DNA from: Rickettsiales bacterium
Lineage (GTDB): Bacteria > Pseudomonadota > Alphaproteobacteria > Rickettsiales > JALZUV01
DNA length: 37,824 nt
Direction: 5' to 3'
Assembly: GCA_023301245.1 (NCBI GenBank)
Contig: JALZUV010000098.1
Coordinates: forward strand, 1 to 37,824
The notes under the pieces are model-generated. The model worked only from the letters and a program-made list of their open reading frames with translations, had not been told where the DNA came from and ran no database searches. This document shows, piece after piece, positions 1 to 37,567 of the stretch; the stretch's first letter is position 1, and each line of letters starts with the position of its first letter. The position numbers were made by a program, and so were the translations under genes.

Positions 1-18
1 TTTGATTTGCAAATCAAA
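1..18. repeat. 18-bp perfect palindrome TTTGATTTGCAAATCAAA at the window edge, overlapping the ssb stop codon
   Basis: Read directly: positions 1-18 are self-complementary. The half-site TGATTTGCA (3-11) recurs at 6086-6094 in the cro/cI intergenic region. Confidence 0.6.
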
Positions 19-487
19 AGGGGATCTCATCGTCTAAATCGAATTTTTGGGCGGGGTCGGGGTCTTCTGACTTGGCTTTGCTTTCGCGGCCATATTCATG
101 CTCGCTCTCAGCCGCCGGCGGGCGATTGCTATCCCCTTTGCTATTGAGCAAAGTCAGACTGCCGTTAAATCCAGACAGCACAACCTCAGTTGTGTATTTA
201 TCATTACCGTCGCGGTCTTGCCATTTGCGCGTCTTGAGCTGTCCCTCGATATAGATCTTACTGCCCTTGTGAACATATCTCTCAATGATACCGACAAGCC
301 CCTCATTAAAGACCGCGATATTGTGCCAATCGGTCTTTTCTTTTTTCTCGCCGGTTGTTTTATCTTTCCAGCTCTCAGACGTCGCCAGGCTAAAATTAGC
401 AACCTTGCCGCCAGTGTTGAAACTGCGAATTTCTGGATCCTTACCGACATTGCCGATAAGGATCACTTTATTGACTGAACCTGCCAT
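14..487 (-). CDS. ssb: single-stranded DNA-binding protein
   Basis: 157-aa ORF. N-terminal OB-fold SSB pattern (VNKVILIGNVGKDPE...TDWHNIAVF...IYIEGQLKTRKW) and the canonical acidic C-terminal tail DDEIPF. ATG at 487. Confidence 0.93.
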   Translation of the reverse strand: MAGSVNKVILIGNVGKDPEIRSFNTGGKVANFSLATSESWKDKTTGEKKEKTDWHNIAVFNEGLVGIIERYVHKGSKIYIEGQLKTRKWQDRDGNDKYTTEVVLSGFNGSLTLLNSKGDSNRPPAAESEHEYGRESKAKSEDPDPAQKFDLDDEIPF

Positions 488-755
488 TAAAAGGCCTCCG
501 TTTTGGCGTCAGTGATAAAACGCAGTAGCCAGGAGCGACGCCAAATCTCCCCCCTGCAAGTTTAAACGAAATATTGCGGGTAATGCTTTCGCCGGAGCGC
601 ACCGCGCCTTGCTGATTATCCGACAAGCAATGCAGCTTAAGACAATCCCCGACCGCAAAGCCGCGGTCATCAAGCCGGTATTCAAAATTTTTCTCGCCTC
701 TAACGATAGGCCAGAAAAAATCAGGCCAACAGTCAAGCTCATGAGTGCGGCTCAT
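468..755 (-). CDS. DUF3850 / ASCH (PUA-like) domain protein
   Basis: 95 aa. HELDCWPDFFWPIVRGEKNFEYRLDDRGFAVGDCLKL fits the DUF3850 signature (HELK.WP..F....G.K.FE.R.nDR.F.vGD). Overlaps the ssb start by 20 nt. Confidence 0.6.
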   Translation of the reverse strand: MSRTHELDCWPDFFWPIVRGEKNFEYRLDDRGFAVGDCLKLHCLSDNQQGAVRSGESITRNISFKLAGGRFGVAPGYCVLSLTPKRRPFNGRFSQ

Positions 756-5210: not shown

Positions 5211-5525
5211 TTAATTATCCTTATAAGGAAGCCGCGCCGCCTGACTAGGCGTTGCGGTCTTCCGGCGAAGTTTGGTTTTAAAATTGGTGACAGACGGCGC
5301 GCGCGGCCGCGTGGACGCGGGAACATCGCGAGTTTGCGAGGCCTTTCGCTCCGCCGCCGCGAGGCGCTGCGATATCTCAACTCCGTCCTCAGTCAGCGCG
5401 CCTTGCGCGTTAAGATATCCAAGAGAGCGCAGCTCGGCCGCATGTTGCTCAGAGATAGCACGCCCTAGGCCCAGCGCGCACAGCGCAGTTATAGGGCCGC
5501 GCACAACTAAGCTCACGCCGCTCAC
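5211..5525 (-). CDS. hypothetical protein
   Basis: 104 aa. The GTG start overlaps the upstream stop (GTGA). It shares a GALTE(D/Q)G motif with the upstream ORF. Confidence 0.4.
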   Translation of the reverse strand: MSGVSLVVRGPITALCALGLGRAISEQHAAELRSLGYLNAQGALTEDGVEISQRLAAAERKASQTRDVPASTRPRAPSVTNFKTKLRRKTATPSQAARLPYKDN

Positions 5526-5764
5526 AGGCCAACCCTCACGCCCTCAACATCAAAAAGATGATAAGCCACGGCAAAACCTTGCTCTGTCAGCGCGCCGCCG
5601 TCTTCAAGACCGCCAGCCTCGAGCGCCATCTGACCAAGATCACCGTCGGGCACTAGATCGTTATAAAAAGAATGAAGCCGCGCGACCGTTGGCGAGCTAT
5701 TAGGCCTAACATATTCGGCGCAAGGACCATGTATAGGGCAAGGCAAGCTGCAGATACACGTCAT
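5522..5764 (-). CDS. hypothetical protein with Cys-rich N-terminus
   Basis: 80 aa with an ATGA overlap to the cro-like gene. The N-terminus is MTCICSLPCPIHGPC, and it carries the motif GGALTEQG. Confidence 0.4.
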   Translation of the reverse strand: MTCICSLPCPIHGPCAEYVRPNSSPTVARLHSFYNDLVPDGDLGQMALEAGGLEDGGALTEQGFAVAYHLFDVEGVRVGL

Positions 5765-6048
5765 TGCGCGGCCTCCGCACCCTCGGCCGCCATAGAGCCG
5801 CGCTCGAGCTCAGCCTGCCAGGCAGGCAGCGGGACAAGGTCATTTGGTTTAACCTCACCTTTGGTAAGCAAAAATATTTCGCGCTGCATCGGGAGCGGCG
5901 GCTGAACATAACGCTCAGACGTAAACTCACGCGTCCAATTTAATATAGTTGAATAACTAACGCCTAATTTCGCCGCTAAATCCGTAGGGGTTAATTTCTG
6001 TTTGACAGCCCATTTTGCAAGCGGGGTTTCAATATTCTTTAAGTCCAT
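5761..6048 (-). CDS. Cro-like HTH regulator, first gene of the early/replication operon
   Basis: 95 aa. The HTH is LTPTDLAAKLGVSYSTILNW. It is transcribed divergently from the cI-like repressor across a 127-bp AT-rich spacer. Confidence 0.6.
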   Translation of the reverse strand: MDLKNIETPLAKWAVKQKLTPTDLAAKLGVSYSTILNWTREFTSERYVQPPLPMQREIFLLTKGEVKPNDLVPLPAWQAELERGSMAAEGAEAAQ

Positions 6049-6175
6049 AGCCGTTCTCTTTCCTTGACGGCTACCTTAAAAAGTGTGATTTGCATTAAAT
6101 TGCAACAACAAAATTCATTATTATTCTTGTTTTATGAAAGTGATATAAGTTTTGACGCCCTCTAAAAGCTTTTTT
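6049..6175. promoter_or_regulatory. divergent immunity control region (candidate operators and promoters)
   Basis: AT-rich spacer containing TGATTTGCA-ttaaat-TGCAACAACA (6086-6110). ATTGCAACA (6099-6107) recurs at 6861-6869, and AATGCAAA (reverse complement of 6089-6096) recurs at 6838-6845 downstream of cI. TTGACG lies at 6065-6070. Confidence 0.45.
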
Positions 6176-6793
6176 ATGGCTAAACATCGTATCGAATACT
6201 GGCGCAAGAAGCGCGACTTAACACAAGTCCAGCTTGGCGAGCTAACCGGCAACTCTCAAAATGCTATCTGGCGGCTTGAGACTGATAAGATGGAGCTCAA
6301 ATCGCATCACCTTCCGGTCTTTGCGCGCGCCCTTGGCGTGCGGCCGATAGATATATTGCCGCTTGAGTTTCTTGAAGAAGATATGCGCAGCCATAAATTC
6401 AGCGAAACAGAAGCGCAAGAATACAGACCCTCTGTAAACTGCGATAATACAGGAAATAACACACTCTCATTAGTAGAAATGGCCGTTGGAGATAACCCAA
6501 ATCGGAACGCCTGGACATTACAGTCAGACGTTTTAGAAGATCAAGGCTATATAAAGGGCGATATTCTTATCACTGATATGAGCCAAAACGCTAAAGCCGG
6601 AGACATAGTTTGCGCTGAGCTATACGCTAACGGAACATCGGACACAGTTTTTCGGATTTTTCAGCCGCCATACTTACTTTCTGGATCTCAAAAACCTTTA
6701 TATCGCCAACCCATAATGTGCGATTATGCGCGCGTGAAAATCATTGCCACCGTTACTCAAATGATAAGGCTCAATCCAAGCGCCAAACTATGA
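6176..6793 (+). CDS. cI-like repressor: N-terminal XRE HTH plus C-terminal S24 (LexA/cI)-like domain
   Basis: The ATG at 6176 (MAKHRIEYWRKKRDLTQVQLGELTG...) is preferred over the track's TTG at 6152. The C-terminal KGDILITDMSQNAKAGDIVCAEL...TVFRIF aligns by eye with lambda cI [23 protein letters not shown]...FTFKKL. Confidence 0.8.
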   Translation: MAKHRIEYWRKKRDLTQVQLGELTGNSQNAIWRLETDKMELKSHHLPVFARALGVRPIDILPLEFLEEDMRSHKFSETEAQEYRPSVNCDNTGNNTLSLVEMAVGDNPNRNAWTLQSDVLEDQGYIKGDILITDMSQNAKAGDIVCAELYANGTSDTVFRIFQPPYLLSGSQKPLYRQPIMCDYARVKIIATVTQMIRLNPSAKL

Positions 6794-6990: not shown

Positions 6991-7158
6991 ATGCAGACTT
7001 TAACTGACGCTAAACTTAATAATAAACAAATGGCCGCCGCCAATCAAATTGATCGTGATTGGGCCGCGGCAATTGCGGCTGCAGAGAAACGGCTGTCAAA
7101 CTTAAAAGCAGATCGCGCCGCAGAAATACGCGCAGCCATCAACCGCTTCGCGGCTTAA
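6991..7158 (+). CDS. small Ala-rich helical ORF, 55 aa (below the track cutoff)
   Basis: ATG at 6991 preceded by AAAGGA. Translation by hand: MQTLTDAKLNNKQMAAANQIDRDWAAAIAAAEKRLSNLKADRAAEIRAAINRFAA, with TAA at 7156-7158. Confidence 0.35.
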   Translation: MQTLTDAKLNNKQMAAANQIDRDWAAAIAAAEKRLSNLKADRAAEIRAAINRFAA

Positions 7159-7175
7159 CCTCAACAAAACCGGAT

Positions 7176-7592
7176 ATGATTATGACAGATAAAACACAAA
7201 AAGACCCACGCGGCAGCACAGACGTTGATAGCTTTGTCGGAACAAAGCTACGCCAAAGACGCCTTGTGCTTGGAATGAGCCAGACAGCGCTTGGCGACAA
7301 GCTCGGCGTTACTTTTCAGCAAGTCCAAAAATATGAGCGCGGCCAAAACCGCCTTGGCGCGTCCCGCCTTTTCAATTGCTCGCAAATACTTGGCGTAAAA
7401 CCCGCCTATTTTTTCGACGGGCTTGACCCAGCCAGCACCGGAGCGCCTGAATATAGCGACCCCGCACGCACGCTTTCTCTAAGCGTGCCAGGCGCGAAAC
7501 TCATGCGGCAACTATCACACTTTACCAAGCCGCAACTCGAGAGCGTGCTAAACGTGACAACCGCGATTGAAGCCGCAACAGCGCGCGCCTGA
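7176..7592 (+). CDS. XRE-family HTH transcriptional regulator
   Basis: The internal ATG at 7176 (MIMTDKTQ...) is preferred over the Arg-rich TTG extension from 7059. The classic HTH_3 pattern is LRQRRLVLGMSQTALGDKLGVTFQQVQKYERGQNRLGASRL. Confidence 0.75.
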   Translation: MIMTDKTQKDPRGSTDVDSFVGTKLRQRRLVLGMSQTALGDKLGVTFQQVQKYERGQNRLGASRLFNCSQILGVKPAYFFDGLDPASTGAPEYSDPARTLSLSVPGAKLMRQLSHFTKPQLESVLNVTTAIEAATARA

Positions 7593-7600
7593 GCCTCGCC

Positions 7601-7897
7601 ATGAGCGGCGCGCTGACATTATCACAAGCTGAAACGGCACGCCTTTTCGGTATGTCAGCGCGGCGCTTTTCAAATGATTTACCCACTTTAATAAATGAGG
7701 GCTTTCCTCCGCCTTATATCGGCAATCTATCAGACGGGCGCAACGGCCCGCGCCGCCGCTGGCTGCGCCGCGCTGTGCTGCAATTCATGACATTGCGCAG
7801 CGTGCCAGGGGAGGGCGGCATGACACTTGCCGCCAATGAAAACGGTGACGGCCTACACAGGCTAGACAGAATCACCCTAGGCGAGGTCAGAGGATAA
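7601..7897 (+). CDS. excisionase / AlpA-like DNA-binding protein
   Basis: 98 aa. LTLSQAETARLFGMSARRF...GFPPPY...RRRWLRRAVLQF fits the Xis/AlpA (MerR-type HTH) pattern. It lies immediately upstream of the integrase. Confidence 0.55.
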   Translation: MSGALTLSQAETARLFGMSARRFSNDLPTLINEGFPPPYIGNLSDGRNGPRRRWLRRAVLQFMTLRSVPGEGGMTLAANENGDGLHRLDRITLGEVRG

Positions 7898-7902
7898 CGG
7901 CC

Positions 7903-9312
7903 ATGCTACCCAAAAAAAGCTATTTACAGTTTAAACGCGCGGCGGACGGCACAGTCTTTGGCCGCTTCTCGCCCAGCCCTAAACTGCGCAAAATGGGATA
8001 TGGCCGCTTTAATATTTGCACTGGCGGGGATCCTTACAGCACAAAAGAATGGGCCGCGCGCGGCTTTAAATCCGCTCTACCCATCACAAAGCCTGGACAC
8101 TATGCCAGTATTGAGGATTGCCTTGATATTATGGACGAGGTTTTAAAAGTCATTGAGGCGCAGTCCCGCGCGGCCGAGCCCCTGGACGTCACAGCCGCCG
8201 CGCGAAAACCTAAACACCGCAGCGCCGCGCGCACGGCAAGCGCCCTCACAGTCAGATCACTATTTAATGACTATCTGCGTAGCCCTGAATTTTTAGACGA
8301 TTGCTCGAGCGCGACGCAAAGAGATTATCGCAACCGCTTGCACCATGTTGCTAACTATTTTGGCACGCGAGCGCCGGCTGATATCGACAGCCTTGACGTT
8401 TATGAAATGTATAAATCTATCTGCGCACACGGGAAACAACACGCCGCACATAGGCAAGTGGCCGTTATGCGCATCGCCTTTGGCTGGGGCCGCAAAAAGT
8501 CGCGCCGCTGGAAACCCTTTATACCTGATATCGACTTTAAGCTGGGACTACCAAAGCCCGCGCCGCGGATCCGCATCGCCACACCCGCCGAGCAAGCCGC
8601 CCTTATGCGCGCCGCAGATGATCCTTACTCAATTTATAAAGAGCTCGGCCGGAGCGGCCCCTTTCGCAAAGATAGCGGCAATGGCCGCAGCTATCCCGCG
8701 CAGCCAACTCACGCCATGCACTCGGTCGCAGATATGCTCACCCTTATGATATGGACCGCCATGCGCCCAACAGACGCGCTACTTGCCAATTGGGATTGGT
8801 GCTACACGCATAACCACACCCAAGACCCAGAGAGCCGGCGGCGCAGCGAAGGCCCAAGGCTTACATACAGCCCAAGTAAAACAGGCAAGAAACATAATAT
8901 CACCGTCGACATACCCATATTGCCGCCGCTGCAAAAACGCCTGGCAGAAATAAGAATGCGGCAGCTCGCAAATGATTGGCGAGGCCGCGGCCGTGTGCTG
9001 CTAACTGATACATATGGCAAGCCCTACGCCACAAGCAAAACAGGGAGCTCAACATTCTCGACTAATTTCTCAAAGGTGCGCAGCTTGGCCGCAGAGATAG
9101 AGCCGAGCGTCGCCACCTTGCACGCGCAGGATTACCGCGACACCGCCTTAACGCAGCTCGCGCGAGGCGGCGCAAGCCTCTTAGAGATACTTGCATTCAG
9201 CGCGCACTCTAGCCTAGACAGTCTTAAAAAGGTGATTGAACACTATATGCAAATCGACGGCGAATTTGCAGACCGTGCCGGCAAGAAACTTATGAAACAA
9301 ATGGGGTACTAA
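7903..9312 (+). CDS. int: tyrosine integrase
   Basis: 469 aa. Catalytic-type motifs are AMRPTDAL (Arg), HAQDYRDTA (H-x-x-R) and SAHSSLDSLKKVIEHY (His...Tyr). It is adjacent to the tRNA-derived att core. Confidence 0.85.
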   Translation: MLPKKSYLQFKRAADGTVFGRFSPSPKLRKMGYGRFNICTGGDPYSTKEWAARGFKSALPITKPGHYASIEDCLDIMDEVLKVIEAQSRAAEPLDVTAAARKPKHRSAARTASALTVRSLFNDYLRSPEFLDDCSSATQRDYRNRLHHVANYFGTRAPADIDSLDVYEMYKSICAHGKQHAAHRQVAVMRIAFGWGRKKSRRWKPFIPDIDFKLGLPKPAPRIRIATPAEQAALMRAADDPYSIYKELGRSGPFRKDSGNGRSYPAQPTHAMHSVADMLTLMIWTAMRPTDALLANWDWCYTHNHTQDPESRRRSEGPRLTYSPSKTGKKHNITVDIPILPPLQKRLAEIRMRQLANDWRGRGRVLLTDTYGKPYATSKTGSSTFSTNFSKVRSLAAEIEPSVATLHAQDYRDTALTQLARGGASLLEILAFSAHSSLDSLKKVIEHYMQIDGEFADRAGKKLMKQMGY

Positions 9313-30074: not shown

Positions 30075-31634
30075 TTATAAAAGAATTTTAGGAGCTGAAT
30101 TTGAATGGCTCCCAAAATGTGACTTAGACGCCATGCGGACAGCGTCATGCAGGCGCTCAGGGGAATGAATGAAAAACATGCAGCCATATTGCAGCGCGTC
30201 GTGGACGTGCGAAAAATGGCCCTTGTCGGGCTTTTCTCCATAACGCGTGCCATCAGCGCCTTTGTATTCTTTGATTTTATATCCGGACTGAAAGCCCTCA
30301 CGCACCGTCATGCAATGATTATTGATCTGCAGACGCGGCACGCCGACATTGAGCTCATTTAAAAGCCGGCGCACAGCTTTAATGCGGGGGTCCAGATTAT
30401 TGCTGTAGCCAGGCAAAACCTTAATTTTGGCATGAGTTTGGAAAGTCATAATCCAGCGGGTCATATCGCCATTGCTTTCGCGGCCGCCCGATCGGTTACT
30501 TGCCGCAGGATCAATCACAGCAATCGCGGCGCGCCCAGGGTATTTCATAGCCAGCAAAGCCGCTACGCGCTCACCAAAGCTTGCCGCGTCAGTGAAGTCG
30601 CCGGCTTCCGTTACGATTTCGTCAAGTACGTTTAAATTACCAGAGAGCGTCGGCTCGAGCACAACAGCGGCCGCAGAGCCCCCGCCGTCAACGCCAATGA
30701 TGAGCGGCAAGGTGCCGTCGCCGGTCATAAGCCGCGAGGCGGTATGCAGATCATCAACGTAATCACCATAGACAGGCTTGCCCGATCGGGAATAGCCGAC
30801 GAGGTTTTCTATCTTGCGTTTGATTTCCAATGGATCACGCATCGTACTGGCGAGATATTTATAATATCCGCCCTCTGGCTTGGGTAGGTTTTTGAGGTTT
30901 TCAGCGTCCGGAGAGAAGCCAGACGGAAATTCTATGAAATGATCCGTGTTTAAATTGGTTTTAAGAGCTAGGCGGCGATAAAGCTCATTTGTATCATTAG
31001 GCGCGTTGAAGTCGCCCCATAGCTGCGTGAACATTCCGCGGCCTTCATCTGGCAAATCTTTGATATTCGGCCAGCGGCCGAGGCGCTGCGCGAAACCGTC
31101 AACAACTTTTTCTGGAAGGTGATCAGGCTCATATAGGTGAACGCAGGTTGTGCGCAGGCCCGCAATCATGGCCTCAATAGATTTATCGCCAACCGCCACA
31201 AAATGCCAAACCGTTTTGTATTGGCATTTTTTATCGCCCCAAAGGTAGGTGACTGTGACGTCCTCTCCCTTGCCACCCTTATACTCAACGCCCGGCGCAT
31301 CAGGCGGGATTAAATCACGGAAACTATCGAGCGCTTTGTTGTGGACGGTCTTATAGGTATCACAAACAACAGTTATCTTGCATTCCTTACGACCCGTGCT
31401 ATAGCGCACAGGTTGACGTTTTGTATTTACCATCCCTTTAAAATATGCCGTCGACGTTTTTGCGCAGCCAACGGGCCCCATTGCGAGCACGATTGGCTTT
31501 TCGCTCATAAGGTATTCTAGGTTTTTTGGGCCTGGACAGCTCCACCCGTCGCGCAGGACGGGCCCGAGCCCATTTTGCAGACCCGCCCTCGGGTCACTGG
31601 CGGCCGCCTCACGTTGTAAAAGCGCGGCGGTCAT
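30075..31634 (-). CDS. terL: terminase large subunit
   Basis: 519 aa. Walker A is LAMGPVGCAKTS, and there is an acidic nuclease-type C-terminal half. It lies upstream of the portal, with a strong G-rich RBS. Confidence 0.8.
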   Translation of the reverse strand: MTAALLQREAAASDPRAGLQNGLGPVLRDGWSCPGPKNLEYLMSEKPIVLAMGPVGCAKTSTAYFKGMVNTKRQPVRYSTGRKECKITVVCDTYKTVHNKALDSFRDLIPPDAPGVEYKGGKGEDVTVTYLWGDKKCQYKTVWHFVAVGDKSIEAMIAGLRTTCVHLYEPDHLPEKVVDGFAQRLGRWPNIKDLPDEGRGMFTQLWGDFNAPNDTNELYRRLALKTNLNTDHFIEFPSGFSPDAENLKNLPKPEGGYYKYLASTMRDPLEIKRKIENLVGYSRSGKPVYGDYVDDLHTASRLMTGDGTLPLIIGVDGGGSAAAVVLEPTLSGNLNVLDEIVTEAGDFTDAASFGERVAALLAMKYPGRAAIAVIDPAASNRSGGRESNGDMTRWIMTFQTHAKIKVLPGYSNNLDPRIKAVRRLLNELNVGVPRLQINNHCMTVREGFQSGYKIKEYKGADGTRYGEKPDKGHFSHVHDALQYGCMFFIHSPERLHDAVRMASKSHFGSHSNSAPKILL

Positions 31635-31870
31635 ACCCCCACACCCCCTAAGCCAGATAATAAACGTTCGCGATTTTTGAATATTTGCACTTGTTCTAAA
31701 ATATGTTGAGCTGCCTGCGATAGCCCCCCTTTGAGAGACTGGCCGGCTTCCTTGGCGGGGTACCCTTGCGCGAAAGGGTAGGGGGGTAAGGCGCTGCAGG
31801 TCGCACGCATGGGATTAGATATCCGTTGTTGCGCGCATGAAAAGCTTATATGTTTCAACAGCTTAATCAT
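31631..31870 (-). CDS. possible 79-aa ORF filling the terS-terL spacer (alternative: structured non-coding RNA)
   Basis: The ATG at 31870 overlaps the end of terS by 8 nt, and the stop overlaps the terL ATG (ATGA). The composition is unremarkable. The region also holds a perfect 7-bp hairpin, TACCCTT-(6 nt)-AAGGGTA, flanked by C6/G6 runs. Confidence 0.3.
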   Translation of the reverse strand: MIKLLKHISFSCAQQRISNPMRATCSALPPYPFAQGYPAKEAGQSLKGGLSQAAQHILEQVQIFKNRERLLSGLGGVGV

Positions 31871-32330
31871 CTTGTGCGACGCTCACTTGTGCGACGGTTG
31901 CGCTTTCGTCAGCGTAAGCTATTGATTTTGCTACATTAATTTCAAAGACTTCATCCGCGTCATCAAAGTCGCCAAAGCTCGGCACATTGATAGTCAGCGG
32001 CGCAACGTCCTCCACACGCGCAATGATAGCCGTGGGCCGCTTGCTATGCACATAATTGGCTAGACGTGTATTGACTTCCAGCAACAGCTTAGCGGCTTCC
32101 AATCGCGTGCAATTCAGCGCTCTCGCAAGGTTTGGGATATCTAGCGCGTTCATTTCAGCGAGATTAATCAAAGGGTCGCCAAATCGCTCCAGCAAAAATT
32201 CAACAGTCTCTTTCGTGCGGCGATTAATCGAGCCTTTAGGACGGCCGCGCAGCTGGACCCGCTGATCCTCGGCCACGCCGAAAAGGTCGCCCTCTGCCTG
32301 TGCTTCATTGGATGTCGCGCCTAAGCTCAA
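31863..32330 (-). CDS. terminase small subunit (putative)
   Basis: 155 aa with a TTG start. The N-terminal LRGRPKGSINRRTKETVEFLL (AT-hook-like RGRP) is typical of podoviral TerS N-termini. It lies upstream of terL and is the first gene of the late operon. Confidence 0.55.
   Translation of the reverse strand: MSLGATSNEAQAEGDLFGVAEDQRVQLRGRPKGSINRRTKETVEFLLERFGDPLINLAEMNALDIPNLARALNCTRLEAAKLLLEVNTRLANYVHSKRPTAIIARVEDVAPLTINVPSFGDFDDADEVFEINVAKSIAYADESATVAQVSVAQDD
31871..31896. repeat. direct repeat CTTGTGCGACG x2 (31871-31881, 31886-31896) inside the terS 3' end
   Basis: Read directly. The core TGTGCGACG is identical to the att arm 9-mer at 9561-9569, which is the reverse complement of CGTCGCACA. 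Confidence 0.7.
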
Positions 32331-32912
32331 TTGTTTAATACCCTTGCCGAGTTGATTTGACCCGAGCTCATAGCACAGCTGCGCAGCCCCCTACGCCGCG
32401 CAGCAATTATTGCGGCCCTATCGGATAGCATTTTTTTGCAGCTTACTGACTTACCGAATAACTCACCGATATGAGCCGCTAAGTTATTGATATATATACC
32501 TTTTTGTTTTTGGGTAAGTAAGTAAGAGAGTAAGTTGAGTATCACCCTTACGCGCGCCCTCGCTCGCAAGACAAAAGCCTATAGGCGCGCTCCCTGACCC
32601 GCTGACTGACTGACCCGTCAAAAATTTTCAAAACCATCCTTAATTTGGGGTGAGGGGAGAAAACCGATAACCATCAACCGCTTAGCCCTAGCCCAATGGG
32701 TGTTAAAACGGGGGTAAAGGGGTCGAATTGAGAGTAAGTCAAACGGTAAGACAGTCAGCGCCGAGCTCTTACGCGCGCGCGATATCGCGCGCGACTATCA
32801 CGCGCGCGGGCGAGTGCGTATAAATTAAATTACATATTTGTATTTTATCGCTTGTAATTACCTTACAAATCTGTATGGTATTTATATCAACAACCCTAAC
32901 GGAGATTACCAA
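32331..32912. promoter_or_regulatory. 582-bp repeat-dense divergent control region between the late operon and the ArdC operon
   Basis: CTTAC-TGA-CTTAC at 32442-32454. (GTAA)3-GAGA-GTAA at 32514-32533. CTTACGCGCGC at 32547-32557 and 32768-32778. CTGACCCG-(CTGA)2-CTGACCCG at 32594-32617. A 20-bp perfect palindrome CGCGCGCGATATCGCGCGCG at 32774-32793. Confidence 0.7.
32852..32879 (+). promoter_or_regulatory. candidate sigma70-type promoter of the ArdC operon, with an inverted repeat over the -35
   Basis: TTGTAA (32852-32857) - 16 nt - TATGGT (32874-32879). The inverted repeat TTGTAA-ttacc-TTACAA spans 32852-32868. Confidence 0.4.
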
Positions 32913-33812
32913 ATGACCAAAACAGACCTATATCAGGACGTTACAGACCGCATTATTGCCCAAATGGAAAAGGGCGTATTACCCTGGGCACGGCCTTGGA
33001 GCGCAGACAAAGCGCCTTTCGACTTCCCAAACAACGCCGCAACAGGGAACCACTATAGCGGGATTAATATTCTATTGCTTTGGGACGCGCAGCTCGAGGG
33101 CGAGCATTCAACGCATAGCTGGCTTACATATAAGCAAGCGCAGAGCCTCGGCGGCAATGTGCGCAAGGGCGAGCGCGGCTCTACTGTCTGCTATGCCAGC
33201 ACATTTACACCCCAAAAAGAAAAGACCGCCGCCGCGCAGGAAGGCCGCGACGCGCGGGCGATTGGCTTCCTAAAGCGTTACACGGTCTTTAACGCTGACC
33301 AATGCGACGGCCTAGGCGATAAATTCACGCCTGCCGAGCCCATGCCAGAGCGGGAAATGATACCCGCTGCAGAGGCCGTGATTGCCGCAACGGGTGCGGA
33401 TTTTCGTCACGGCGGCAATAAAGCATTCTACAGCCCTTTTCATGACTTCATCCAGACGCCGCACCAACAAAAATTTGATGACCAGATAAATTATTACCGC
33501 ACGGCCTTTCATGAGCTCGGCCACTGGACAGGCCATAAGAGCCGCCTAGACCGCGATTTAAAAAACGGCTTTGGTTCTAAAGACTATGCGCGTGAAGAAT
33601 TGATAGCTGAAATGAGCGCCGCTTTTAGCTGCGCGCGGCTCGGCATTACGCCAACCGTCCGCCATGCTGACTATCTGGGGTCATGGCTTAAGGTTTTGAA
33701 AGAGGATAAGCGGGCGATATTTAAAGCCGCGTCTATGGCGTCTAAAGCTACAGCCTTTGTCATGCAAGACACGCCAAAGGACCACGCGCAGCCTCTACAG
33801 CAAGCCGCCTAG
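32913..33812 (+). CDS. ardC: ArdC-like antirestriction protein (ssDNA-binding N-domain plus zincin metalloprotease-like C-domain)
   Basis: ATG at 32913 (MTKTDLYQDVTDRIIAQMEKGVLPWARPWS...NHYSGINILLLW...) with an HExxH motif, FHELGHWTGH. The track's TTG start at 32838 was rejected. Confidence 0.85.
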   Translation: MTKTDLYQDVTDRIIAQMEKGVLPWARPWSADKAPFDFPNNAATGNHYSGINILLLWDAQLEGEHSTHSWLTYKQAQSLGGNVRKGERGSTVCYASTFTPQKEKTAAAQEGRDARAIGFLKRYTVFNADQCDGLGDKFTPAEPMPEREMIPAAEAVIAATGADFRHGGNKAFYSPFHDFIQTPHQQKFDDQINYYRTAFHELGHWTGHKSRLDRDLKNGFGSKDYAREELIAEMSAAFSCARLGITPTVRHADYLGSWLKVLKEDKRAIFKAASMASKATAFVMQDTPKDHAQPLQQAA

Positions 33813-33897
33813 AGCCTACCGCTTTGGCGTCGCCTGATTCAGGCGACGCTCTAGCCGTGGACTTAACCGCGATAACCTTAACGGAGATTACCAAATG
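33813..33897 (+). repeat. 85-bp intergenic cassette, copy B (hairpin 33827-33849 plus shared RBS/start)
   Basis: 81/85 identical to 35066-35150. It ends in TAACGGAGATTACCAAATG, which also precedes ardC (32897-32915). Confidence 0.9.
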
Positions 33898-34551
33898 ACG
33901 CACAGCAGCCAACATAGAGACGCAATTGCATATATTGAAACGCTCGAGCCTGAAAACATGACAGGCTGGATGTATAAAGAATTTGAAACTGTTAGCGGAC
34001 TTATAGAGGGGCAGACCACCCGCGACTATGTAAACAATATGAGCCCTAAAGATTTAGTTAGCTATATTTCACAAAACATTAATGAGCGGCCAATCTTTGC
34101 GGATGTATGGGACATCATGAGTGAGCTTTTACCAGATGCACTCAATCCTAAAAACTACATAGCTACCAAAACAGAGACAATGCAAGACGGGTGGAAATGG
34201 GAGCGCGTCACAGGCGCACAAGACATGAGCGCCGCTCAATTACTTAAAGTATTTAACACAAAAGGCCGCGGCGAGCTTTGCCTGATTTTTGACGAAGGCG
34301 AGACACCTGAATTTACTTTTCAAGAAATGGTAGCGCATATTTTAGAGGGTCTTGAAATTGGATTTCACCCAAATGAAACCAAACCCAAACCAATTGTTTA
34401 TGATTATTTTGTAACTATCACGGAGCACCGCAAGTACAGAATAACAGCGGAAAGCGAGCAAGACGCTATTAACAAAAGCGGCGACTATGCAAGAGACGCT
34501 AATCCAATTTCATATGATTATGACCCTGTAAAAGTGGAGCTTTGCAAATGA
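33895..34551 (+). CDS. acidic orphan protein (218 aa)
   Basis: The ORF has the shared RBS GGAG. It is lower in GC than its neighbours. My hand count gives roughly 37 D/E versus 21 K/R. Confidence 0.6.
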   Translation: MTHSSQHRDAIAYIETLEPENMTGWMYKEFETVSGLIEGQTTRDYVNNMSPKDLVSYISQNINERPIFADVWDIMSELLPDALNPKNYIATKTETMQDGWKWERVTGAQDMSAAQLLKVFNTKGRGELCLIFDEGETPEFTFQEMVAHILEGLEIGFHPNETKPKPIVYDYFVTITEHRKYRITAESEQDAINKSGDYARDANPISYDYDPVKVELCK

Positions 34552-35066
34552 CACACCCTTTCACACTGGACGATTGCAACGGCGAAAGCCTCGAGCTAAT
34601 CGCGCAGCTCTATGAAGCGGGCGAGCAAATTCAAAAAGACCACTCACGCGGCCTCTACTTTTCAAAGTCTGAATATAAGCTTGCAGGAATGCCCGCGCTA
34701 TATCGCGGCGCAGACGAATGCGCCATGTGGACGCTGTACCGTCTTAAATCACTCTCGAGCGCGCAAATGATAGAACACGGCCTTGACGTCATGGCCGCGC
34801 AGACTGAAATCCGCTGCGCGCCTATGCGCCGCGACCCAAATGATGACAGCTCTACAGCCTGTGACGTGCTCGAGGCCGAATTTTTTGACGTCTACACGGT
34901 TATGATAGACGCCAGCGGCGATACAATTGACGGCCCTACAGTCATAGCCCCCAAAGGTCACATGGATATAGACGTAAGCCTTAAGACAGAGCAAGCCGCC
35001 GCGCGCTATGCGCAAGGCTTACATGAGCTGACAGCGTGGCCGCTCGATTTTGGATTAATGCAATAA
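34548..35066 (+). CDS. acidic orphan protein (172 aa)
   Basis: The ATG at 34548 overlaps the upstream TGA (ATGA), with GGAG 9 nt upstream. My hand count gives roughly 28 D/E versus 13 K/R. Confidence 0.6.
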   Translation: MTHPFTLDDCNGESLELIAQLYEAGEQIQKDHSRGLYFSKSEYKLAGMPALYRGADECAMWTLYRLKSLSSAQMIEHGLDVMAAQTEIRCAPMRRDPNDDSSTACDVLEAEFFDVYTVMIDASGDTIDGPTVIAPKGHMDIDVSLKTEQAAARYAQGLHELTAWPLDFGLMQ

Positions 35067-35150
35067 GCCTACCGCTTTGGCGTCGCGTGACTCGCGCGAC
35101 GCTCTAGCCGTGGACTTAACCGCGATAACCTTAACGGAGATTACCAAATG
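35066..35150 (+). repeat. 85-bp intergenic cassette, copy C (hairpin 35080-35102 plus shared RBS/start)
   Basis: See copy B. The four differences all lie in the hairpin apex. Confidence 0.9.
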
Positions 35151-35504
35151 ACAACAACATTCACAGCGCCGCCATTGCGCAAGGCCGCCCGCAACGCTTT
35201 AAACCTGCCAACCCTAAACGGCATGGGCCGCCCCAAAGGCAAGCCGCCCACAAGCCGCCGCGCAGGCGCAAGTAAAACAGAACTGCGCGACGTGCTAGAG
35301 CATGGTTTTGCCGCTGCTAAAATCCCCTCTCTAATGGCCGCGCTATATCCTGATAGAGATTTTAAATCGCTAGACGCTGACCAGCTCTTTAATATGCTTT
35401 ATGCGGCGAGATGGTGTGACGCGTACAGCCGCGCGCCTAACGAATGGCGCGGCTTGATAACAACAAACACACAAGAGACGCAGGCGCAGCTTATAGCGGC
35501 TTAG
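35148..35504 (+). CDS. hypothetical basic protein with an AT-hook-like GRPKGKPP motif
   Basis: 118-aa ORF starting at the shared RBS/ATG of cassette C. Confidence 0.55.
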   Translation: MTTTFTAPPLRKAARNALNLPTLNGMGRPKGKPPTSRRAGASKTELRDVLEHGFAAAKIPSLMAALYPDRDFKSLDADQLFNMLYAARWCDAYSRAPNEWRGLITTNTQETQAQLIAA

Positions 35505-35595
35505 CGGTCGCGGGCGCGGCGAGATTACCAATCAACCACCGCGCCCACGCTGCAGCCCTTCACAGAGCCGCCTAGACCCTATAGAGAGAGACGCT

Positions 35596-35859
35596 ATGAC
35601 AGACAAGACCAAAACAATAGACATTACCCCCGCGCGATATAGAGAGCTCATTAAGATGATGTATGATGACGCGCCTATAACAGCTATATGCGCTGACCTT
35701 GGCATTGGCCGCCCCGCGCATTATGAATTTTTAGAGCGCGGCGTTTTGCGCAGCTCCATAGCCGAGCGCATAGAGACGAAAGCCGCGCAGAAAACGGCGC
35801 AGCTGACCTTGCGCGCCAAGCGGCTCACGCAAATTATAAAAGATATGAACACGGCATAG
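35596..35859 (+). CDS. small HTH DNA-binding protein (Aca-like position at the operon end)
   Basis: 87 aa. ITAICADLGIGRPAHYEFLERG fits a resolvase/HTH_7-like helix-turn-helix. It is the last gene of the plus-strand operon. Confidence 0.55.
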   Translation: MTDKTKTIDITPARYRELIKMMYDDAPITAICADLGIGRPAHYEFLERGVLRSSIAERIETKAAQKTAQLTLRAKRLTQIIKDMNTA

Positions 35860-35871
35860 GCCGCTAATTTA

Positions 35872-35936
35872 CGGCTAGAGCTTCGATGGCCGATTGCGGC
35901 CACGCGCCCGATCACCGGCTAGAGCTTCGATTGCCG
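35872..35936. repeat. two 21-nt direct repeats CGGCTAGAGCTTCGAT(G/T)GCCG (35872-35892, 35916-35936) in the convergent intergenic zone
   Basis: Read directly. The core CGGCTAGAGC also occurs inverted in both 85-bp cassettes (GCTCTAGCCG). Confidence 0.8.
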
Positions 35937-36032
35937 TTTTGCCTGCAATCAGATCCAGCGACATCAGCAGCGACGCCAACGCGCGCGGCGCTGCGCGATC
36001 GTCAAAGCCCTGCCAGACAGCCCCAAAAATTA

Positions 36033-36317
36033 TTATGAACACTTGCGCGGGCAGCTCGGCCTCGCCGTCACCTGCAGCGGCGCTTCAGTGACGTCACGCG
36101 CGGCGTCTACGGCCGCAGCGCTGCGGTAATGATAACTTGCCTTAACATGCGCCTCAAATTCATCATGAACAATCCCGCACGCGGTCGACATCGCGCGGAT
36201 CTGCGCGGCAAGGCGCGGCGGCAAACCCTCAACCTCGAGCCAACGCGCGAGAGCGGCCTGCGCCGCAGACGCCCTATGCGCGCTGCGGTTTATGTCCCGG
36301 GCATCATCGCGGGTCAT
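36033..36317 (-). CDS. hypothetical protein
   Basis: 94 aa with a 4-nt overlap to the upstream ORF. Confidence 0.4.
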   Translation of the reverse strand: MTRDDARDINRSAHRASAAQAALARWLEVEGLPPRLAAQIRAMSTACGIVHDEFEAHVKASYHYRSAAAVDAARDVTEAPLQVTARPSCPRKCS

Positions 36318-36580
36318 TGGTTGTTAACACTCTCTTTTATAGTTAGGCCATGCAAAGGATATTTGTTTTTAAACCCATATCTTTTACGGGTCTCTAAACT
36401 TTCTTGCACCTTATGACCTTTGTAATAATCTAAAGAGGTAGGGCTCATGGCATAAACGGCACCGTGCCTATGTTTTATAATTGCATTATGCGGGCCGTTA
36501 CCACCCGACCATGTAACAACAACCTCTTGGCCTTCATTAAGTTTATAAATTTCATCTGTGGTCAAACATTTATTATTCAT
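36314..36580 (-). CDS. hypothetical protein (AT-rich)
   Basis: 88-aa ORF, markedly lower in GC than its flanks. Confidence 0.45.
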   Translation of the reverse strand: MNNKCLTTDEIYKLNEGQEVVVTWSGGNGPHNAIIKHRHGAVYAMSPTSLDYYKGHKVQESLETRKRYGFKNKYPLHGLTIKESVNNQ

Positions 36581-36677
36581 TGTCTATCCTTGTTTAAGCG
36601 GTGCTCGCTGCGCGCATCCGCTGCGCGGTTACTCTTTCGCTCCGCCCTTATCGGCGCACCCGCTACGCGGGTACGCC

Positions 36678-37376
36678 TTAATCTATGCCCTTCATCACGG
36701 CCGCCAGTAGCGCGAGCTGCTCTGCAGGGCCGCAGGAACTTACTGCGGCCGTCCACCGTTCACATTTTTTCTTTATGCGCCACCGCTCGCGCCTATCCGT
36801 GCCGGCGACAGAATGAAAATGCGGCTCAGCTTCGTCAAAGCTAAGCCACAGAACCTCAAGGCAGGTTTTCTTATGGTGCCGCGTGACATACTCCACACGC
36901 CTAAACCCCATGCCGCTACAGAGCGCCGCATCATAGCTATCATGCGGATAGCCGCTTATCATGACTTGCACATTTTGGTTTTGAAAGAGAAAGACCTGCA
37001 GCCAACGCAGAAACTCAGCATGATCGGCCGCGCTCCAATCATAGCGGCCGTAGCCGCAGCTCATCGTGCGCGTGTCCGGATGATAAGGCAGATCAAAATA
37101 TATTAGAACCTTGCCCATATCCCTAATCTCTAGCTGCGTTTCAAGAACGTCATAAAACGAGCCGCGAAATAACACAGCATGGTCCGGCATATCAGCGCGA
37201 AACTCAGCCAGGACAGCTTTGTTTATCTCAATTCCAATGTCGCGCGGGGAAGGCGGCTTACGGCGCATGACCTGCCCCGAGCCAAGACAGGCCTCGATAT
37301 AAACATCATGGCGCGGCATATGGCCGATGATACGCTGCCAGACGCCAGACTGCCCCTTAGAGCCGAGATATGACAT
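36678..37376 (-). CDS. D12-class (Dam-like) N6-adenine DNA methyltransferase, orphan
   Basis: 232 aa. N-terminal YLGSKG, AdoMet motif EACLGSG, and catalytic motif DLPY (a DPPY variant) in IYFDLPYHPD. No adjacent endonuclease-like ORF. Confidence 0.75.
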   Translation of the reverse strand: MSYLGSKGQSGVWQRIIGHMPRHDVYIEACLGSGQVMRRKPPSPRDIGIEINKAVLAEFRADMPDHAVLFRGSFYDVLETQLEIRDMGKVLIYFDLPYHPDTRTMSCGYGRYDWSAADHAEFLRWLQVFLFQNQNVQVMISGYPHDSYDAALCSGMGFRRVEYVTRHHKKTCLEVLWLSFDEAEPHFHSVAGTDRRERWRIKKKCERWTAAVSSCGPAEQLALLAAVMKGID

Positions 37377-37567
37377 TAGCTAACTATGCCAAATATAATC
37401 GACGCTCCAAAAAGGAACGCCGCAATAAGAATAACGATAAACTTACCGCTTTTAGCCTGGCGGTCCCAAACAAGCTCATTCAGCAGCAAAAAGACAGAGC
37501 CGCCGCAGACGAATAGACCGAATATGACACCAAGAATGTTTAGGAATGTGTCTAGGAGGGTGCTCAT
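37376..37567 (-). CDS. small two-TM membrane protein
   Basis: 63 aa. Hydrophobic segments are ILGVIFGLFVCGGSVFLLL and FIVILIAAFLFGASIIFGIV. It is coupled to its neighbours. Confidence 0.45.
   Translation of the reverse strand: MSTLLDTFLNILGVIFGLFVCGGSVFLLLNELVWDRQAKSGKFIVILIAAFLFGASIIFGIVS

Follow-up and report, generated by a model that had tools for sequence, protein, structure and literature searches.

The window analysed here is a stretch of 37,824 nucleotides (nt) from a Rickettsiales bacterium (assembly GCA_023301245.1, contig JALZUV010000098.1, forward strand). Towards its end lies a cluster of five plus-strand genes that is led by an ArdC anti-restriction gene and closed by orf87, a small gene encoding a putative helix-turn-helix (HTH) protein. 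It is probably a counter-defence cluster that includes a conserved small regulator. In the reading that we favour, to which we assign a probability of about 0.5, it represents an accessory restriction-countering cluster inserted between the early and the late operon of a circular temperate phage, in which the cargo genes are joined by repeated junction elements (termed J1 and J2) and orf87 encodes the regulator. Sequence comparison with a distantly related phage contig, L005, supports a variable anti-restriction island ending in a conserved small DNA-binding gene, because L005 swaps ArdC for a methyltransferase and keeps homologues of both orf218 and orf87. Beyond ArdC, no family membership can be claimed for the genes of the cluster. 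The locus comprises the following features.

32331-32912: non-coding control region of 582 nt, between the divergent TerS-like gene m155 and ArdC
32772-32791: perfect palindrome CGCGCGCGATATCGCGCGCG, 20 bp, ~120 nt upstream of the ArdC ATG
32846-32879, plus strand: promoter-proximal block, with TATCGCTTGTAATTACCT at 32846-32863; the previously proposed -35 hexamer, inverted repeat and -10 hexamer overlap or adjoin it
32892-32917, plus strand: leader copy 1, AACC(C/T)TAACGGAGATTACCAAATGAC, with the Shine-Dalgarno sequence GGAG; precedes ArdC
32913-33812, plus strand: ArdC, 299 amino acids (aa); N-terminal single-stranded DNA (ssDNA)-binding ArdcN domain and C-terminal zincin metalloprotease domain
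33813-33899, plus strand: junction element J1; extended hairpin (11-bp perfect apex, 33826-33850), leader and orf218 ATG
33895-34551, plus strand: orf218, acidic (pI 4.67), three modules; function not assignable by homology
34548-35066, plus strand: orf172, acidic (pI 4.49), no detectable relatives
35066-35152, plus strand: junction element J2; second hairpin-plus-leader copy, precedes orf118
35148-35504, plus strand: orf118, basic (pI 9.9), GRPKGKPP, no relatives
35505-35595, plus strand: orf118-orf87 spacer, with a decayed leader GAGATTACCAATCAACC (35521-35538) in an 8-bp GC hairpin
35596-35859, plus strand: orf87, small and basic, ITAICADLGIGRPAHYEFL; putative HTH and a long C-terminal helix
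35872-35939, plus strand: two 24-nt direct repeats CGGCTAGAGCTTCGAT.GCCG.TT, directly past the orf87 stop

Gene content of the cluster and of its relatives

All five open reading frames (ORFs) are present at the coordinates given in the original prediction, together with the HELGH and GRPKGKPP motifs and the 87-residue sequence that it had listed. In a codon-usage test trained on the long genes of this phage, each of the five scores positive in its own frame and negative in both alternative frames. The same test rates an ORF of 80 codons in the upstream spacer as non-coding, and no gene is called in 32331-32912 in public assemblies. The operon had been described as ATGA-coupled, which holds for the orf218/orf172 pair, whose stop and start codons overlap as ATGA at 34548-34551, but not for the remaining genes, which are separated by gaps of 82 nt (ArdC-orf218), 81 nt (orf172-orf118) and 91 nt (orf118-orf87). 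The GC content of orf218 is 0.42, compared to 0.54 for its neighbours.

Homology identifies the lead gene as a genuine ArdC with both domains present. Pfam assigns an ArdcN domain (PF08401, DUF1738; E-value 5e-41) to residues 5-126 and an MPTase-PolyVal domain (PF18818; 1e-54) to residues 152-274, and the best-fitting PHROG family is an anti-restriction protein (phrog_7245, 7e-93). The protein aligns over residues 2-285, close to its full length, with the crystal structure of R388 ArdC (PDB 6i89) at an E-value of 2e-68. In this alignment, HELGH falls on HEATH, the catalytic HExxH of R388 ArdC, and EELIAE falls on the EELIAE of the glutamate helix, the two elements by which the ArdC active site is defined (PMC7213743). 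The earlier call of an ArdC-like lead gene is therefore upheld by Pfam, PHROG and the structure match alike. In R388 ArdC, the protease activity is dispensable for anti-restriction (PMC7213743).

The contig L005 belongs to a distant relative with the same gene order; identities are 32% for the portal, 41% for the protein in the position of the large terminase (TerL), 38% for the TerS-like protein, 36% for the methyltransferase and 51% for the DUF3850 protein. Its divergent plus-strand locus is organised as follows.

L005 gene 1: 70 aa
L005 gene 2: 282-aa N6-adenine DNA methyltransferase, NPPF motif (phrog_3820, 4e-79)
L005 gene 3: 61 aa
L005 gene 4: orf218 homologue
L005 gene 5: 244-aa zinc-ribbon protein, unrelated
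L005 gene 6: 82-aa orf87 homologue, last of the co-directional run
L005, ~690 nt past the orf87 homologue: C5 cytosine methyltransferase

The gene that occupies the place of ArdC is the N6-adenine methyltransferase, with the orf218 and orf87 families kept around the exchange; DNA methylation, too, is a way to escape restriction. Judged by homology, DNA-protecting genes are clustered in both phages: ArdC and a Dam-like methyltransferase in the window, and the N6-adenine and C5 methyltransferases in L005. In L007, an unrelated 47-kb phage contig, an orf218-family gene leads a small-gene operon that diverges from large minus-strand genes, and the same operon includes a Lar-like restriction-alleviation gene. 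The orf218 family adjoins anti-restriction genes in two phages and shares an operon with the Lar-like gene in the third; this guilt-by-association evidence comes from few genomes and all points in one direction.

The two coupled ORFs, orf218 and orf172, had been described as strongly acidic. The residue counts, made by hand at that time, are exact: 37 acidic (D+E) versus 21 basic (K+R) residues in orf218, and 28 versus 13 in orf172. Among the 51 ORFs they rank second and third in acidity and are the most acidic non-structural ones. Compared to T7 Ocr, however, as given in the T7 record, they are mildly charged, with a net charge per residue of -0.073 (orf218) and -0.087 (orf172) against -0.239, and an acidic fraction of 0.17 and 0.16 against 0.29. 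This charge density, about one third of that of Ocr, is comparable to that of several structural proteins of the same phage. DNA mimicry, which had been put forward for both proteins, fails its one quantitative test, that of charge density, and is not supported. The structural model of orf218, which matches no known fold, adds nothing in its favour. A role as inhibitors acting through protein-protein contacts is possible.

Sequence searches leave both acidic proteins nearly isolated. No match was found for any of the five cluster genes in PADLOC and NCBIfam, nor for orf218 in Pfam, PHROG or the PDB; orf172 has no match in the PDB, the family libraries or 50,697 phage records; and orf218, orf172 and a profile of the orf218 family give no PDB sequence match. 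Each of orf218, orf172 and orf87 retrieves only itself among 5.8 billion protein clusters. In tblastn searches of the 50,697 phage records, orf172, orf118 and orf87 returned nothing or one chance match, and searches of IMG/VR and GTDB with orf218 and orf87, as well as with the TerL-position and TerS-like proteins, gave nothing useful. A HMMER scan of 1.8 billion representative proteins recovered six distant relatives of orf218 (E-values from 3e-10 to 7e-4), so that the family has seven detectable members among these representatives. All six relatives are acidic, and they carry the three modules of orf218 in differing combinations. The AlphaFold2 model of orf218, built with the six relatives, has a mean predicted local distance difference test (pLDDT) score of 69.5 and a predicted template-modelling score of 0.37. 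Of its three modules, the N-terminal one is helical, the middle one is alpha/beta, and the C-terminal one is a small beta-alpha-beta unit. At this model quality (pLDDT 69.5), Foldseek finds no match below an E-value of 0.1 in the PDB or BFVD. The only high-probability matches are single-module alignments with uncharacterised phage proteins of 50-70 aa.

Several candidate similarities of these proteins were examined. A C-terminal domain common to orf218 and orf172, suspected by eye, gives no alignment in BLASTP. An AcrF2 Pfam match in one orf218 relative (E-value 0.07, 14 bits versus a cut-off of 27) was treated as noise; the aligned region corresponds to a part of orf218 that AlphaFold2 predicts to be all-helical. 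The C-terminal module of orf218 has a DpnD/PcfM-like match (E-value 0.047, in one relative only), which is a lead and not a finding. The GRPKG arm of orf118 resembles the RGRPKGS motif of the TerS-like m155, and the 5-mer common to the two proteins is not significant by BLAST.

The last gene, orf87, quite likely encodes a small HTH DNA-binding protein. Its AlphaFold2 model, folded from the single sequence, has helices at residues 12-23, 28-35, 40-47 and 53-86, with a mean pLDDT of 66.6 and ~60 over the first three helices. Its Foldseek matches are all non-significant, and many of them are XRE- or HipB-type HTH proteins. A two-sequence profile searched against the PDB gives as its best match the TetR-type N-terminal HTH of DhaS (PDB 2iu5) at a sub-threshold E-value of 0.17, and the conserved segment ITxxxxxxL...PxxAICxxL...xxYxxxERGVLR is aligned in register with it. 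The sole homologue found is the 82-aa protein of L005 (33-34% identity, E-value 7e-9), and both genes follow the cargo and share its strand. No support for placing orf87 in a known Aca family comes from Pfam (no match at E-values up to 10), the PDB (no sequence match to any solved Aca) or PHROG, in searches made without a dedicated Aca profile set.

Junction repeats between the genes

The cluster contains a pair of 87-nt direct repeats that had escaped notice in the first reading of the sequence. J1 (33813-33899) and J2 (35066-35152) are 95% identical, and each runs from the stop codon of the upstream gene to five bases inside the next gene. Both fold into a long hairpin, imperfect overall, whose apex is perfect over 11 bp and whose extended stem has ~20 pairs. 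RNA folding gives -35.7 kcal/mol for J1 (z-score -4.75) and -33.7 kcal/mol for J2 (z-score -3.96), and no shuffled sequence folds as well. The four differences between the repeats (33834, 33838, 33841 and 33842) all lie at the hairpin apex; two of them make up one C-G to G-C swap, one changes U-A to U-G, and one is in the loop, so that the pairing of the hairpin is kept. Judged on location alone, the chance that four random changes all fall within the 25-nt hairpin is ~0.007.

The 3' part of each J element is the leader. The 21-mer TAACGGAGATTACCAAATGAC occurs in three exact copies, before ArdC, orf218 and orf118, compared to 0 expected, and ArdC, orf218 and orf118 have identical translation-start regions because these copies are identical. 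The leader of orf87 itself is a diverged form of this sequence. The spacer before orf87 holds, in addition, the decayed copy GAGATTACCAATCAACC, with ATC in place of ATG, and a sequence 70% identical to the junction of the ArdC 3' end with J. J1 and J2 stand at the exact borders of the orf218-orf172 pair. Together, the J repeats, the decayed copies, the bracketed pair and the jump in GC content point to assembly of the locus, and probably its reassembly, through recombination at a common joint.

In the predicted fold, the J hairpins have the form of RNase III sites, being imperfect, about two helical turns long and free of a U tract. Other identities considered for the J elements were rejected. 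As terminators they would need a U tract, which does not follow, and the terminator scan does not flag them; as promoters they offer no acceptable hexamer pair on inspection; and as integron attC sites they have one RYYYAAC and no GTTRRRY in either copy, the only integrase of the genome being of phage type and ~24 kb away. No Rfam family matches anywhere across 32300-36100, and no exact copy of the leader or of J was found in IMG/VR and GTDB. A T7-type polymerase promoter, CCTATAGAGAGAG, was considered upstream of orf87 and set aside, as it is a single copy at chance level and no RNA polymerase turned up among those ORFs that were compared with family libraries.

Exact matches to the 10-mer GCTCTAGCCG number four in the whole window and are confined to this locus. 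One pair directly follows the J hairpins on the 3' side (33848-33857 and 35101-35110), and the second pair, in the opposite orientation, lies within the 24-nt direct repeats past orf87 (35872-35939). Over 14-15 nt, each 24-nt repeat is the complement of the sequence that flanks the J hairpins on their 3' side. These copies could be sites for one DNA-binding protein, or could let the 3' untranslated region pair with the junctions over 14-15 nt. One public assembly (L002) breaks inside the J repeat, the two copies of which are identical over a stretch of 57 nt. In L005, a ribosome-binding site and start context, AGGA(G/C)AAAAAAATGA(T/A)AATTTC, is duplicated within the cluster (5231-5252 and 5710-5731), once before the 61-aa gene and once before what is probably the true start of the orf218 homologue; leader reuse may be characteristic of such loci.

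Control region and phage setting

Upstream of ArdC, the promoter and inverted repeat that had been proposed are where they were claimed to be: TTGTAA (32852-32857), a 16-nt spacer and TATGGT (32874-32879), with TTGTAA-ttacc-TTACAA at 32852-32868. Their significance is reduced by several findings. The putative promoter fits 8 of 12 consensus positions and fails the promoter scan, and its -10 falls in ~26 nt that are absent from L005. The repeat is at chance frequency, since the genome has one perfect inverted repeat with 6-bp arms and a spacer of 0-8 nt for every 254 nt. At the corresponding place, the arms in L005 read TTATAT and TGTAAC.

Comparison of the control regions of the window and L005 (L005 3387-4168) revealed four collinear blocks in common. 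The best of them, TGAGCCGCTAAGTTATTGATATATA (25 nt, 32472-32496, aligned with L005 3532-3556), scores 35 against a shuffle maximum of 29, and a second lies at 32529-32540. The palindrome at 32772-32791 is collinear with a GC-rich inverted repeat centred on TATC (L005 3977-3996), and the block TATCGCTT.TA.TTACCT (32846-32863) matches L005 4128-4144 at 16 of 18 positions with one gap. This last block overlaps the previously proposed -35 and half of the inverted repeat, and its L005 counterpart overlaps TTGACT-N17-TATATC, a pair read by eye that the scan rejects, the last base being C. The palindrome is a stronger candidate operator or structure than the 6-bp inverted repeat. Judged by conservation in this one relative, the control region is likely to contain real regulatory sequence. 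The 582-nt region also contains five copies of GTAAGT and six of CTGAC, and the L005 region has repeated motifs of its own (GTGAACT and AGTTCAG). The region adjoins the TerS-like gene, and may be a pac/cos site, an origin or the late promoter.

Three public metagenome contigs are 100% identical to the window over the matched stretches. Two contigs span the ends of the window with 96 nt between them, so the genome is circular and ~37.92 kb long; the 96 bridging bases, absent from the window, are L001 13278-13373. The phage is temperate and podovirus-like, as judged from its integrase, CI- and Cro-like regulators, primase and helicase genes, and T7-type portal and tail genes. It has no close relatives by blastn among the 50,697 phage records. 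Its other relevant genes are the following.

5761-6048, minus strand: Cro-like gene, lysogeny module
6152-6793: CI-like repressor with a self-cleaving S24/UmuD-type domain, lysogeny module
7059-7592: second HTH regulator, lysogeny module
7903-9312: integrase, lysogeny module
14-487, minus strand: single-stranded DNA-binding protein (SSB), early operon
468-755, minus strand: DUF3850 protein, early operon
36678-37376, minus strand: Dam-like orphan DNA methyltransferase, end of the early operon, convergent on the ArdC cluster
31863-32330, minus strand: TerS-like m155, likely small terminase, upstream of TerL
30075-31634, minus strand: 519-aa protein in the large-terminase position, divergent TerL lineage

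The minus-strand early operon spans the window ends and finishes at 36033, and the ArdC cluster converges on it. On the other side, the packaging/late operon (m155, TerL and portal) diverges from ArdC across the 582-nt region. The end of the early operon (36033-37567 and 14-755) holds two relative-less small genes, m88 with a GC content of 0.37 and m94 with 0.65. This end of the operon is a mosaic accessory zone, and its methyltransferase and SSB content recalls plasmid leading regions. The 519-aa protein in the TerL position has no Pfam or PHROG match at E-values up to 0.1, and is 27-41% identical to its counterparts in L005, L009 and L010, the last two being more distant relatives. The AT-hook-like RGRPKGSxNRRT of m155 is kept in the window, L005 (2877-3386) and L009 (9752-10345), and L010 matches at the same residues; m155 matches no Pfam or PHROG terminase family, and orf118 has the GRPKG core only.

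The junction has a different content in the window, in L005 and in L009/L010. L009 and L010 carry helicase, TerS and TerL on one strand, without an inverted locus of the ArdC type. L009, a 242-kb contig that is presumably a prophage, has a BRO-N/antirepressor-like gene (7743-8513) inverted at the helicase-TerS junction; inverted accessory genes may preferentially insert there.

Proposed mechanism, rival explanations and known systems

In the mechanism that we propose, a single polycistronic transcript would start in the conserved promoter-proximal block. By analogy with the early RNase III sites of T7, the J hairpins would serve as sites of RNA processing or stabilisation rather than as terminators, and the identical leaders would equalise the translation starts of ArdC, orf218 and orf118. 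At the DNA level, the J repeats could double as recombination joints for the swapping of cargo. The orf87 protein would bind DNA in the divergent control region and regulate the cluster, with autorepression as the leading guess. An extension of this scheme, which we regard as speculative and unlikely to hold in full, views the hairpin-plus-leader elements as joints in a small system of cassettes. A lineage of temperate podophages would use them to swap counter-defence genes (ArdC, methyltransferases, the orf218 family and relative-less genes), each newcomer gaining a ready translation start and an RNA-stabilising hairpin. The repeats past orf87 would pair with the joints and tune expression, and the orf218 family would be a new class of defence inhibitors that moves together with anti-restriction genes.

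Several points weigh against a restriction-countering cluster under the control of orf87. ArdC is the sole gene of the cluster with an assigned function, which comes from homology, and the role of ArdC was demonstrated in conjugation and not in phage infection (PMC7213743). The roles of orf172 and orf118 are unconstrained because neither has any relatives, and the HTH evidence for orf87 is sub-threshold (E-value 0.17, with pLDDT ~60 over the segment). The sigma-70 scan finds no site in 32320-32930 and the terminator scan finds no terminator closing the cluster, so that the transcription unit is only assumed. At 81-91 nt, the intergenic gaps are wider than the 55 nt allowed by the operon criterion applied to acr-aca loci (PMC9410906). 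The comparative support comes from a single syntenic relative, in which the placement of the regulator last is not strict, because the C5 methyltransferase of L005 follows the orf87 homologue on the same strand.

Other explanations of the locus were weighed against the same evidence. It is conceivable, if on balance unlikely, that orf87 mainly regulates the divergent packaging/late operon, or both arms, being needed because the inverted insertion blocks early read-through into TerS; the other genes would then be unrelated cargo. This would suit the co-directional helicase-TerS-TerL arrangement of L009 and L010, which have no orf87 homologue in 12-20 kb of flank, and the break in that continuity in the window and L005, both of which have orf87. 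The best-conserved block of the control region (32472-32496) is on the TerS side, and orf87, with its own diverged leader and 91-nt spacer, may be separately expressed. Yet the absence of orf87 from L009 and L010 covers only those 12-20 kb, no late-activator family of the Q, Ogr/Delta or Mor/C type matches orf87, and regulators at the end of a cluster more often regulate their own cluster. The full model of the original prediction was an acr/aca-type operon with orf218 and orf172 as DNA mimics similar to Ocr or ArdA and an Aca-like orf87 acting on TTGTAA-N5-TTACAA at the TTGTAA-N16-TATGGT promoter. Its core, a counter-defence operon with a dedicated regulator, retains the leading ArdC, the cargo swap in L005 and the keeping of orf87; exchangeable anti-restriction cargo next to a conserved small regulator-like gene is what the acr-aca scheme would lead one to expect. 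The acidity ranking of orf218 and orf172, the closing of the co-directional run by the orf87 homologue in L005, and the half of the inverted repeat that lies inside the L005-conserved block also agree with it, as does the known behaviour of Aca proteins, which are HTH repressors acting on inverted repeats of their own promoter (PMC9410906). What it loses is the mimicry (-0.073 and -0.087 against -0.239 for Ocr, and a three-module alpha/beta model of orf218 without a PDB or BFVD match), the operator (an 8/12 promoter with its -10 in sequence absent from L005, and a repeat at chance frequency with altered arms there) and the Aca family, orf87 being unlike any solved Aca or Pfam HTH family. The AcrF2 match, at 14 bits against 27, does not restore it, and as a whole we consider this model distinctly unlikely.

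Since the phage is temperate, the cluster might instead be expressed from the repressed prophage for the benefit of the lysogen, as a superinfection-exclusion or toxin-antitoxin-like module whose orientation reflects that expression. Its direction opposite to both lytic operons, its heterogeneous GC content and the BRO-N-type gene inverted at the same junction in L009 are compatible with this proposal. However, ArdC and DNA methyltransferases act to protect DNA that enters a cell, and no service to the host is known for them; none of the five genes fits a PADLOC defence model, and no toxin-like domain was found in the Pfam and NCBIfam scans, which makes the proposal improbable. Hardly any credence is given to a protease-repressor switch of the ImmA/ImmR or IrrE/DdrO type, in which the ArdC metalloprotease and the HTH protein would control induction. 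Although the protease domain of ArdC is structurally related to IrrE (PMC7213743) and the cluster includes an HTH gene, the alignment with R388 ArdC is full-length and includes the ssDNA-binding domain, the phage already has a CI-like self-cleaving S24/UmuD-type repressor beside a Cro-like gene, and L005 keeps orf87 without ArdC.

If the restriction-countering reading is true, the locus offers four candidate counter-defence genes beside a validated marker, ArdC, and L005 is a second example, in which the marker is swapped for methyltransferases. Guilt-by-association of this kind has led to new anti-CRISPR and anti-restriction proteins in the past. The repeated hairpin-leader joints could, in addition, shed light on the way in which phages put such islands together.

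Mobile elements are known to carry clusters in which anti-defence genes are mixed with methyltransferases and SSBs (PMC11541004). Similar to the islands of plasmid leading regions described there, ArdC has a convergent orphan Dam-like methyltransferase and an SSB gene nearby, the L005 locus has two methyltransferases, the content varies at a fixed position, and many neighbours are uncharacterised. The setting differs, being a temperate phage with double-stranded DNA, with no oriT and no Frpo single-strand promoter, and the island sits at the early/late operon junction beside packaging genes. With acr-aca operons (PMC9410906, PMC6765145), the locus shares variable, mostly orphan cargo, a conserved small HTH-like gene downstream and a partly conserved promoter-proximal sequence. 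It differs from them in having no known Acr or Aca family, gaps of 81-91 nt with hairpins, no conserved inverted repeat placeable in a recognisable core promoter, and identified cargo directed against restriction and not against CRISPR. The ardC gene of R388/IncW plasmids, accompanied by ArdK and KfrA (PMC7213743), encodes the same two-domain protein with HExxH kept (E-value 2e-68), and it likewise lies among establishment genes that include regulators and an SSB. Unlike that system, the setting here is a phage, and orf87 is unrelated to ArdK and KfrA as far as they can be compared.

As reportedly described by Dunn and Studier, the early region of T7 is transcribed as a polycistronic mRNA with the Ocr gene (0.3) first, and RNase III cuts it at intercistronic hairpins. 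The present cluster resembles this region in its leading anti-restriction gene and its long, imperfect intercistronic hairpins without U tracts; in contrast to T7, the phage is temperate and has no phage RNA polymerase gene among its scanned ORFs, and Ocr is a true DNA mimic (-0.24 per residue). The J elements can also be compared with the promoter-early stem-loops (PeSL) of T4 and with attC, the cassette-joint sites of integrons. As in those systems, a repeated hairpin element brackets optional genes and is accompanied by decayed copies and a jump in GC content. The J element differs from PeSL in lacking a promoter and from integron cassettes in the absence of an integron integrase and of a GTTRRRY core site, and it has only two full copies, with none found in other genomes (IMG/VR, GTDB). 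This cassette-like architecture is unusual, whereas the overall kind of the locus is that of the known anti-defence clusters of mobile elements (PMC11541004).

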